The notes below the pieces were generated by a model that was not told the origin of the DNA, made no database searches, and worked only from the letters and a program-made list of their open reading frames with translations. DNA of 39,139 bases from a virus (taxonomy: Duplodnaviria; Caudoviricetes), in the IMG/VR virus record IMGVR_UViG_3300027801_000061, positions 1 through 39,139 of that record, one strand, 5' to 3'. The first letter of the stretch is position 1; each line of letters starts with the position of its first letter. Positions 786-3,303 of the stretch are shown piece after piece. The translations under genes and the position numbers were made by a program.

Positions 786-1040
786 TACCTTGGATCTGCA
801 GATTGTTTCTGATTCCCCGAATGCTTGTCCGTTTCGTTGTCCGCTGCGCGTATGTTAGTGGTCGTTAACATGAACGCTGTCCATGTGATATTAGCTTCTC
901 GCTTTGCAGCGGGGCCGCCCGAGCGGACCCGCACCAGCGCAGGCTCGCTTAGAGTGTGTATGGCCCTCCTTTCCATGGCTGGACTGTAGTAGCCGCTCTG
1001 GCATTCGTGGCCCCTGAGGGGGGCCACTCATTAAAGCATT

Positions 1041-1114
1041 GGGTGTGAAGGTTGGCTTCGCTGCTCCTCCTACTGGGGGTGCGGGACACGGGGGTTCGAT
1101 TCCCCCCACATCCA
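1041..1114 (+). ncRNA. tRNA-like RNA resembling the tmRNA tRNA-like domain, without an mRNA-like domain
   Basis: Acceptor GGGTGTG/CACATCC with G3.U70 and discriminator A; T-arm GGGGG-TTCGATT-CCCCC; stemless D-loop AAGGTTGGCTTCG; single hairpin CTGCTCCTCC-TACT-GGGGGTGCGG; GAC(AC) before the T-arm. Confidence 0.6.
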
Positions 1115-1194
1115 CTAACTAGACTTAGCTAGACCTAGCTAAACCTAACGCTAGGCACCTAGCGTTTGCCTAGCATCACCTAGGATTACCTAGC
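1115..1194. repeat. Array of eight CTAG / CCTAG motifs upstream of terS
   Basis: CTAG at 1119, 1129, 1135, 1151, 1159, 1170, 1180 and 1190. Confidence 0.8.
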
Positions 1195-1237: not shown

Positions 1238-1717
1238 ATGGACATGGAAGCTGGAGAGACGCCATCTGATTATCATTGGTCTTACAATTCGGACGTTGGT
1301 GAGGAGGAGCCTCCTCCGATTGTGCTGACGTATCTGGAAAATTTGACTTCTTTGGAACACGACCGCCTGTCTGATAAGGCGTGGGCTGCCGAGAACGGGA
1401 TCGCTGATCGGACGTTGCGGCGTTGGAAGAAAGATGAGCGGTTTCGGAAGTTGTGGACGAAGATGGCTGATAGTTCGGTGTTGGGGCCTGACGCTATTTC
1501 GCCGATTTATCATGCGGCGTTGAAAATTGCTGCTGATCCTGATCATCCGAAGTGGGATGCTGCGTCGAAAATGATTTTGTCGTTGGCTGACAAGGTGCGG
1601 CCTCCGACTTTGCAGATCAATGTGACTGCTGAGGATCGGTTTACTAACATGTCTGATGATCAGCTCCAGACGTATTTGTCTAAGGGCAAGGATGTGTTGG
1701 AGATCGGTCCGACGTGA
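1238..1717 (+). CDS. terS: Terminase small subunit (HTH); start may be 1244
   Basis: HTH-like AAENGIADRTLRRWKKDERF; overlaps the terL start (GTGA). Confidence 0.75.
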   Translation: MDMEAGETPSDYHWSYNSDVGEEEPPPIVLTYLENLTSLEHDRLSDKAWAAENGIADRTLRRWKKDERFRKLWTKMADSSVLGPDAISPIYHAALKIAADPDHPKWDAASKMILSLADKVRPPTLQINVTAEDRFTNMSDDQLQTYLSKGKDVLEIGPT

Positions 1718-3303
1718 GCTTGGGCAATGATCATGCTGAGCTTGCTCGTAGGGAGGCTGCCTGGCGTCGTGGCGCTGCGGACCCGCATTGGGTAGCTGAG
1801 CAGTGCTGGATGATTCAGCATCCCAAGGGTGAGCGTCTGTTTACTCTTAGGACTTCTCAGTCGACGGCTCTTCAGCGTTGGTTGGATGGCGAGAACAGCA
1901 TCACTCTTAAGGCCCGTCAGATTGGCTGGTCGACGTTGGTGGCGTTCTACGTTTTTTGGTTGGCGTTTTGGTTTCCGAATACCCGAATCATGTTGCTCTC
2001 TAAGGGTGAGCGTGAGGCTCAGGAGTTGTTGGGCAAAGTCAAGTTTGGGTTGGATCGGATCCCTGGCTGGCTCAGGGTTCGTGGCCCGAGGGTTCGTACC
2101 AGCAATTTGACAAGGATTGAGTTGTCGAATGGTTCTGAGATTTTGTCGTTGCCGTCAGGCAACAACCCTGCCCGTGGTTTCACGGGCCGTTTGATCGTTG
2201 TTGATGAGTTTGCGTTCTTGGAGAACGCAAGCGAGGCGTGGGCTTCGATCGAGCCGACCGCCGATATTGGCGGTCAGCTCATCCTTCTCAGCACAGCTAA
2301 CGGGTCTGGTAACAAGTTTGAAGACTTGTGGGTGCGAGCTGAGACAGGCAAATCTGTGTTCAAGCCGATGTTCTACGGTTGGGACTCGGTATACGAGCGC
2401 GATGACGAGTGGTATAAGCAGAAGCAGTTTGATCTGCCTGAGTGGCAGCTTCATCAGGAATATCCGTCAAACCCGACTCAGGCGTTTATTCGTTCAGGGA
2501 TGATGGTGTTTAATGCTGAGCTGTTGGAAGAGTTGAACGCTGGCGCGAAAGAACCGTTGTTGACGTTGAACCTTGAGGGGCCAGGGCCAGATTTCCCTCG
2601 GACGTTCACGCCAGTGGAAAATATTGCTTCAAGCTCGTTTGTTCATGTTTGGGAAGAACCGCAGGAAAACCAGGCGTACGTAATTGGTGCTGATGTCGCT
2701 GAAGGCTTGGCACATGGCGACTACAGCACAGCGCACGTTGTGACAGTCGGCGAAGAACCTCGGATCGTGGCCGAATGGCACGGCCATATCGAGGCCGACT
2801 TGTTTGGCTATGAGTTGTTCAAGTTGGGAACGTGGTACAACTCGGCACTCATATTGCCTGAGGTCAACAACCACGGGTTGACGACTGTGACGGAACTACG
2901 GAAACTCGGATATCGGCGAATTTGGCGGCGGATGAGTCTGAACTCTGTTACCCGAAAACGGACGATGGAGTGGGGTTGGAAAACGACCCGAGTCACTAAG
3001 CCGCTAATGATCGACGGTTTGCATCAGTGGATGAGAATACGACGTTCAGATGGGATCCCGTCTGTTGCCACATGCGCCGAACTCTCACGGTTTACACGCA
3101 ACCATCGAGGCCAAATGTCTGGCTCGCCTCACGATGACCGTGTCATCTCTCTCGCTCTGGCAGTTCACGCTCTGGATTTTGCGTGGAACCCCGAATATCA
3201 AGAAGAAGTAGAGATGCCATACGGCTCGATGGGCTGGTACGAAGAGCAGGTACAAAAAATGGACAACGAACACGACGTTGAAGATGGATGGCTCATAGGC
3301 TAA
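1714..3303 (+). CDS. terL: Terminase large subunit
   Basis: Walker A LKARQIGWST, Walker B IVVDEFAF, motif III LSTANG, nuclease IGADVAEG and HDDRVISLAL. Confidence 0.97.
   Translation: MSLGNDHAELARREAAWRRGAADPHWVAEQCWMIQHPKGERLFTLRTSQSTALQRWLDGENSITLKARQIGWSTLVAFYVFWLAFWFPNTRIMLLSKGEREAQELLGKVKFGLDRIPGWLRVRGPRVRTSNLTRIELSNGSEILSLPSGNNPARGFTGRLIVVDEFAFLENASEAWASIEPTADIGGQLILLSTANGSGNKFEDLWVRAETGKSVFKPMFYGWDSVYERDDEWYKQKQFDLPEWQLHQEYPSNPTQAFIRSGMMVFNAELLEELNAGAKEPLLTLNLEGPGPDFPRTFTPVENIASSSFVHVWEEPQENQAYVIGADVAEGLAHGDYSTAHVVTVGEEPRIVAEWHGHIEADLFGYELFKLGTWYNSALILPEVNNHGLTTVTELRKLGYRRIWRRMSLNSVTRKRTMEWGWKTTRVTKPLMIDGLHQWMRIRRSDGIPSVATCAELSRFTRNHRGQMSGSPHDDRVISLALAVHALDFAWNPEYQEEVEMPYGSMGWYEEQVQKMDNEHDVEDGWLIG

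Follow-up and report, generated by a model that had tools for sequence, protein, structure and literature searches.

The viral sequence analysed here (the window, 39,139 nt) carries a 77-nt gene (1041..1117, + strand) for a tag-less tmRNA-like RNA consisting of the tRNA-like domain (TLD) only, an assignment supported by its score against Rfam RF00023 and by covariation among homologues. The element is genuine and not a chance match. Established here are the gene, a selected fold, an invariant G3·U70 pair and A73, the absence of an anticodon, a tag frame and a phage SmpB, and an accessory, mobile distribution. The explanation that best fits the sequence evidence, and for which we see the chances as evenly balanced, is that the RNA acts as an alanylated, tag-less competitor of host tmRNA via SmpB.

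The RNA and its place in the terminase leader

Against RF00023, the window element scored 47.2 bits (cut-off 47; E 6.9e-17), with model positions 1-374 aligned through both ends and 27 nt standing for 326 model positions, and 1041-1117 was the sole RF00023 match within the 39-kb record. Between the arms of the RNA there are only 24 nt plus a linker, and the tag reading frame and pseudoknots are absent. The initial annotation had proposed a tmRNA tRNA-like domain without message domain and had named the Rfam tmRNA model as a check; the search matched both tmRNA ends with the message region missing, which together with the covariation supports that proposal. The single-sequence fold of the window RNA alone fell short of significance (z -1.84), and the case therefore rests on homologues.

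The acceptor stem GGGTGTG/CACATCC, read as such at the outset, pairs at 7/7 positions (1041-1047 with 1107-1113). Its 5′ strand (1041..1047, +) carries G3, with G1043 and T1111 forming G3·U70, and in the homologues the helix is 100% paired, with G·U in 15/15. The 3′ strand (1107..1117, +) brings the expected A discriminator at 1114 and the genomic end CTA; CCA would be added to the window RNA after 3′ trimming, and only 15/28 host tmRNA genes (best 30 of 58) encode it. The T-arm was also found where anticipated (1090..1106, +), and 3/5 of its pairs change on both sides. The D region (1048..1060, +) does span 13 nt from acceptor stem to hairpin and ends in GGCTTCG, and the A after TTCG (A20) is indeed gone. 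It had also been called stemless, which the alignment does not bear out: 1048-1050 can pair with 1056-1058 in a predicted 3-bp mini stem, as can their equivalents in 22/22 homologues, where pair 10-16 swaps between G-C and C-G. Within the D loop, G1051 is a Levitt-type candidate and GG lies at 1054-1055; C1059 and G1060 we take to be the equivalents of E. coli C18 and G19, and A1088 presumably corresponds to A334. In place of the pseudoknot and message region stands a hairpin (1061..1084, +) that has the 4-nt loop originally described, but 9 pairs and one U·U mismatch rather than 10 bp. It is followed by a 5-nt linker, G-N2-AC (1085..1089, +), in which G45, A48 and C49 are invariant in 22/22. 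Reading this linker as GAC plus 2 extra nt was misled by a coincidence of the window copy: in the homologues only G1085 and A1088-C1089 stay constant, and the subfamily linker is G-N(1-2)-AC.

The features of a canonical tRNA for alanine or proline (5-bp anticodon stem, 7-nt loop, conserved anticodon, U8/A9 connector) are absent. Hairpin loops in the homologues have 3-5 nt of variable sequence with no conserved anticodon, and the 7-nt anticodon loop that had been named as the mark of a decayed tRNA was not found. ARAGORN, from which no valid anticodon had been expected, did call the window element tRNA-Pro(ggg); we rejected this call, which forces a D-arm and places a C·C mismatch within the anticodon stem, and 19/22 homologues received no call. 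A peptide from the open frame 1018-1122, which runs across the RNA, was likewise rejected: it is too short and its frame is not conserved.

The record is a virus, 99% complete, whose portal, capsid and adaptor genes are SU10-like; it also has a WhiB gene. Because WhiB is also present in 5/5 other carriers of the RNA, the host is likely an actinobacterium; names on distant homologues of an SLT transglycosylase give only a hint of Acidimicrobiia. No smpB was found in the window or in the 5/5 other carriers searched, and any SmpB partner would therefore be the host's.

The RNA lies 120 nt upstream of the terminase small subunit gene (terS; 1238..1717, +; phrog_2538, E 9e-05), the first gene downstream, next to the large subunit gene (1714..3303, +; PF03237 over cut-off). 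A candidate sigma-70-type promoter for the leader and terminase operon is tentatively placed at 865..892 (+), with 1 site found where 0.6 is expected by chance, and the TGTGATA around it is conserved in 7/7 aligned relatives. No TAnnnT (-10 box) was found within the 70 nt upstream of the window copy. A conserved structured leader (895..1040, +), including a hairpin at 1007-1027, is also present in relatives without the RNA; across 5 sequences, both sides change in 10/42 of its predicted pairs, it has no Rfam match, and it is possibly a second RNA or a regulatory leader. The RNA is present in the terminase relatives L002, L003 and L004 (TerL identity 89-100%), its site is empty in 7 relatives that cover it (TerL identity 79-84%), and two near-complete relatives have no RF00023 match anywhere. 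It is thus an accessory insertion in a conserved structured leader.

The locus has other features. A CTAG-rich stretch follows the RNA directly (1116-1196), with 8 CTAG in ~75 nt against 75 in the whole 39 kb; it is found in L002 and is absent from L003 and L004. A palindrome, TGTCC-N7-GGACA, lies over the terS start (1229-1245), with related TGTCC motifs at 871-883 and 830-845, in 7/7 aligned relatives, and may represent operator or terminase sites. A G-run tract at 740-770 in the divergent intergenic region, seen in relatives too, is possibly a packaging or G-quadruplex signal.

Homologues, selection and genomic contexts

Two pattern scans of viral contigs gave 146 matches, from which 54 were dropped for failing the acceptor-stem filter and 92 were kept (65 unique); these patterns imposed U70-C72 and A73. 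Four further scans gave 22 unique sequences of 77-78 nt, the distinct subfamily to which the window copy belongs. When the 5′ half was left free, 22 of 45 loci were members, all with the same D-region pattern, and the remaining loci had different joints or were not TLDs. Three of the 16 loci of one scan (L172, L174 and L176) were discarded as chance matches, their 20-mer lying in coding DNA, and 87 unparsed scan loci gave 0 matches with model R1. GTDB genomes yielded 7 pattern matches, one of them a member, L312, a MAG whose RNA is identical to that of L280 and which was left out of host assignment. A blastn search of 50,697 cultured-phage records with the window region and with one subfamily member returned only T-arm-sized pieces.

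The alignment of these homologues indicates that the fold of the RNA is under selection. Pairs were counted in 15 indel-free rows, leaving out three members with a 14-nt D region and four with indels (MAFFT shifts), and 95.2% of cells pair across these rows, against ~47% in slid controls. Both-side changes occur in 11/22 pairs among the 15 homologues, and 0/500 shuffles reach the score, with the caveat that related sequences can beat shuffles. Compensatory changes are found in all three helices, and 6/10 pairs equivalent to the hairpin 1061-1084 change on both sides. G3·U70 is invariant across the subfamily, including members from scans that did not impose that pair, and A73 is invariant along with it. 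Divergence is moderate, with 84% mean column identity and 35 invariant columns.

The genomic contexts vary: the RNA is found in the terS leader, before a primase gene, before a rhomboid gene, after tRNA-like genes and inside an SLT gene. In 14/28 loci and 10/22 unique sequences, counts that are not independent events given that nested copies are near-relatives, it lies in frame within the linker of a predicted lipoprotein that bears an SLT transglycosylase domain (for example L167:3888-4469, +; L169:2979-3539, -; L177:3897-4442, +; and others). Covariation persists among the 10 nested sequences (9 pairs, 0/500 shuffles). The encoded peptide occurs in 22/120 homologous proteins among the matches listed, and the 219-aa and 197-aa forms of the SLT protein differ by about the RNA-encoded segment. 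Twelve SLT loci comprise 5 with an intact copy, 1 with a decayed copy (L321), 2 with a 137-nt variant without G3·U70 (L324:1563-1699, +, and L326) and 4 with none. Acceptor and T arms are preserved in the 137-nt variant, and its fold is strong (z -4.43); L324 carries G3-C70 and lacks TTCG, so that the alanine mark is gone together with the predicted SmpB mark. TAnnnT lies at exactly -15 to -10 in 10/11 nested loci, compared with 1/15 free loci and 0/3 sister genes that lack the RNA. Some nested relatives lie behind an integrase gene, and a tree test of the order of events, nested versus free, gave p-AU 0.30. On one contig, an SLT gene without the RNA has a free copy close by (L327 and L402). 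A GC-rich hairpin often lies within ~15 nt before free copies (L170, L179, L182, L186, L272, L274 and L312; 1007-1027 in the window).

A rebuilt core compared with known tmRNA forms

For the host set, 28 tmRNAs were parsed from the best 30 of 58 loci by score, a selection biased toward the consensus; L355, which did not parse, and loci of three unpublished genomes were excluded, and L329 was counted though not actinobacterial. The core comparison also included 53 other phage mini-tmRNAs, with L021/L040, L061 and L078 excluded as atypical. In the host tmRNAs, a 10-11-nt D region is followed by A20 and a GAC linker in 28/28 (best 30 of 58), and this 1+3 joint is kept in 45/56 other phage TLD-only RNAs. 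In the subfamily the D region runs to 13-14 nt, A20 is missing and the linker is G-N1-2-AC, which makes a 0+4/5 joint. The predicted 3-bp D stem is possible in 22/22 subfamily members, 0/28 hosts (best 30 of 58) and 0/53 other phage mini-tmRNAs. Pair 10-16 is G-C in 16 members and C-G in 6; on a tree from which the D region was left out, this swap requires 3 changes and a single clade was rejected (p-AU 0.015), with the caveat that recombination could mimic repeated change. Two of the three D-stem pairs show no variation in the 15-row count. G11 with C49, the Levitt pattern of tRNA G15:C48, is found in 22/22 members, 0/28 hosts (best 30 of 58) and 17/53 other phage RNAs, and T-loop C60 in 18/22, 0/28 (best 30 of 58) and 2/53, respectively, the window copy having U60. 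The core of this variant is predicted to be re-patterned and more tRNA-like.

Subfamily positions were mapped onto the E. coli tmRNA numbering, a correspondence that we assume here. On this map, the equivalents of U17, C18, G19 and A334 are invariant in 22/22, the neighbouring loop positions 12, 13, 46 and 47 vary, and within GG-N-TTCG variation is confined to one base, which is variable in host tmRNAs too. In tmRNA, U17, C18, G19 and A334 are described as SmpB contacts, and A15 and U17 as lining the SmpB Trp122 pocket (PMC8363625). The predicted SmpB contacts would then be retained despite the loss of A20. Nevertheless, the SmpB binding assumed in the initial annotation is less safe than stated there, as the subfamily lacks both A20 and the 3-nt GAC linker and shows a core with features of the tRNA type.

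A TLD-only phage tmRNA is already published, and the earlier view of phage tmRNAs as full length is outdated: the mycobacteriophage DS6A has such a form, listed as ‘TLD only’ in Table 2 of PMC4131195. We located this RNA at JN698994.1 28478-28560 (83 nt). Like the window RNA, it is phage-borne, has both tmRNA ends, G3·U70, A73, a hairpin for the message region and the end ACTA, and has no tag frame. Judged by anatomy, the window RNA is of this type, with joined tmRNA ends without message, G3·U70 and A73, no anticodon arm and the equivalents of the SmpB-contact bases, but the canonical joint (A20 plus a 3-nt linker) is absent from the subfamily and, given the predicted pairing, so is the stemless D-loop. 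A20, the 3-nt linker and a bulged two-part hairpin set DS6A apart from the subfamily, in which A20 is lost, the D region is longer and contains a covarying mini stem, and the linker reads G-N1-2-AC; DS6A scores only 33.8 bits on the subfamily model compared with 93-99 for members. The variant thus differs from the published form in its rebuilt joint and D region. The DS6A form is said in PMC11915505 to inhibit tmRNA in E. coli, and PMC4131195 describes inhibition by a similar molecule, chargeable or not, perhaps by titrating SmpB. The two sources disagree on whether the molecule tested was DS6A's own RNA or a similar one, and both give the result second-hand.

With standard bacterial tmRNA (RF00023), the window RNA shares the acceptor stem, GG-N-TTCG, the T-arm and alanine identity, but it is without pseudoknots, resume codon and tag frame, and its joint is unlike 28/28 hosts (best 30 of 58). 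Organellar tmRNAs without a CDS (mitochondrial RF02544 and the ~65-bp form of Mallomonadaceae plastids, PMC11915505) are alike in keeping the head only, with no tag frame. However, these are resident genes, the mitochondrial ones with a nucleus-encoded SmpB, whereas the gene of the window RNA is accessory, carried by a phage whose host cells should have a tmRNA of their own; RF02544 was not among the Rfam matches listed for the window. The bacterial Y RNA YrlA, as described in 10.1101/312249, is a tRNA mimic whose D/variable-loop core is built of RNA only and contains a Levitt pair, a likeness that bears on the tRNA-mimic alternative discussed below. YrlA has a Ro60-binding module, whereas the window RNA has a free alanine-type acceptor end, and no Y RNA family matched in Rfam at E up to 10. 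Among the open-access papers listed, none dealt with a wider phage family, with the joint or with nesting; the supplements of PMC11915505 comprise 79 phage sequences, 9 of them ‘standard, no CDS’, which could include a subfamily member.

Competitor, mimic or processing signal

As a competitor of host tmRNA, the RNA would be released from the terminase-operon leader through RNase P cleavage and 3′ trimming, much as tmRNA itself is processed by RNase P and 3′ nucleases (PMC3985003), and would then receive CCA. AlaRS would charge it with alanine, EF-Tu and host SmpB would bind the charged RNA, and it would soak up SmpB and/or enter stalled ribosomes, take the chain and add no degradation tag, which would spare stalled phage proteins from SsrA tagging. 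When SmpB binds, the core, rebuilt with a mini D-stem and a longer linker and without A20, would open or adapt. This reading is supported by the match of both tmRNA ends to RF00023, by an architecture that is that of DS6A, for which tmRNA inhibition is reported second-hand, and by the invariance of the SmpB-contact equivalents while neighbouring loop bases vary. The varied contexts and the nested copies' own -10 box favor a free small RNA acting in trans. Conversely, the reading is weakened because hosts keep A20 and the 3-nt GAC linker in 28/28 (best 30 of 58) and because most other phage TLD-only RNAs keep the 1+3 joint (45/56), where the subfamily has 0+4/5. The mini D-stem, if formed, would also pair the equivalents of A15 and U17 of the Trp122 pocket, and the lack of TAnnnT within 70 nt upstream of the window copy counts against the reading as well. 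The invariance of four bases is not strong proof, since the subfamily is only moderately diverged, and as the reported inhibition is independent of alanine charging (PMC4131195), SmpB titration alone leaves the invariant G3·U70 unexplained.

The same rebuilt core could belong to an SmpB-independent tRNA mimic, a tmRNA head whose RNA-only core folds by itself into an L-shape, and which might serve, alanylated and without anticodon, as a decoy for defence nucleases that target tRNA or tmRNA or as a sink for EF-Tu or AlaRS. We consider this possible, with the balance tilted clearly against it. It builds on the report that core stacking in tmRNA is supplied by SmpB (10.1101/312249), and it accommodates the mini D-stem, the Levitt-pattern G11-C49, the C60 of most members and the repeated 10-16 swap in the counts given above; moreover, defence systems predicted to target tmRNA exist (PMC11090510). 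However, C19, G20 and A48 stay invariant, the missing 8-9 connector makes true tRNA geometry doubtful, two of the three D-stem pairs are constant across the 15 rows counted, and the window copy itself has U60. The invariance of G11 and C49 leaves the Levitt pair without covariation support, and no defence system is linked to the carriers. A bolder version, which we regard as doubtful, is that an actinophage lineage turned a tmRNA head into a self-folding, SmpB-independent, anticodon-less alanyl-tRNA mimic that moves as a cassette between intergenic and nested sites and acts as a decoy against tRNA or tmRNA attackers; as part of that proposal, one DNA stretch at the nested site would serve as promoter, RNA gene and protein linker of a secreted transglycosylase.

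The position in the terS leader and, in half of the loci, in frame inside the SLT gene would suit a cis-acting processing signal, a tRNA-like fold that directs RNase P and 3′ nuclease cuts of the phage transcript and so sets the level or stability of terS mRNA here and SLT mRNA in relatives, and the 137-nt variant of L324 folds strongly though without G3·U70 and TTCG. We find this unlikely: neighbours are unrelated in different phages, nested copies have their own -10 box, and sister genes and sister phages do without the RNA. Moreover, RNase P needs neither G3·U70 nor TTCG. A functionless relic, whether a decayed tRNA, a tmRNA pseudogene or an attachment-site remnant, is very improbable and, on the sequence comparisons, already largely refuted. 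The tRNA-Pro call, the unencoded CCA, the close relatives without the RNA, the integrase gene before some nested relatives and the decaying copy L321 could be read in its favor. Yet compensatory change is found in all three helices and also among the 10 copies inside a coding frame, no anticodon is conserved, and the window copy, unlike L321, which shows what loss of selection looks like, has both tmRNA ends, where attachment-site remnants are expected to carry one.

If SmpB is bound, phages would have evolved a natural inhibitor of trans-translation, which has been proposed as an antibiotic target (PMC8363625), and the RNA would show that a joint found without exception in the host tmRNAs examined (best 30 of 58) can be rebuilt. 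If it is not bound, RNA pairing would replace a protein partner in a tRNA mimic, which would point to an undescribed counter-defence. In either case, the subfamily offers matched natural variants (intact, decayed, long and alanine-less, absent), and standard tools miss or mislabel the RNA, as with the silence of ARAGORN on most homologues (19/22).

The scans also returned other RNAs with unusual D regions. L366, L371, L372, L380, L382, L390 and L401 belong to another class of phage TLD-like RNAs, of 82-83 nt, in which the D region is altered differently (no TTCG) and linkers have 4-5 nt. L032, L051, L067 and L071, which were excluded from TLD counts, are tRNA-Ala-like genes with a TGC loop and an odd 17-nt D region ending in GGCTTCG.
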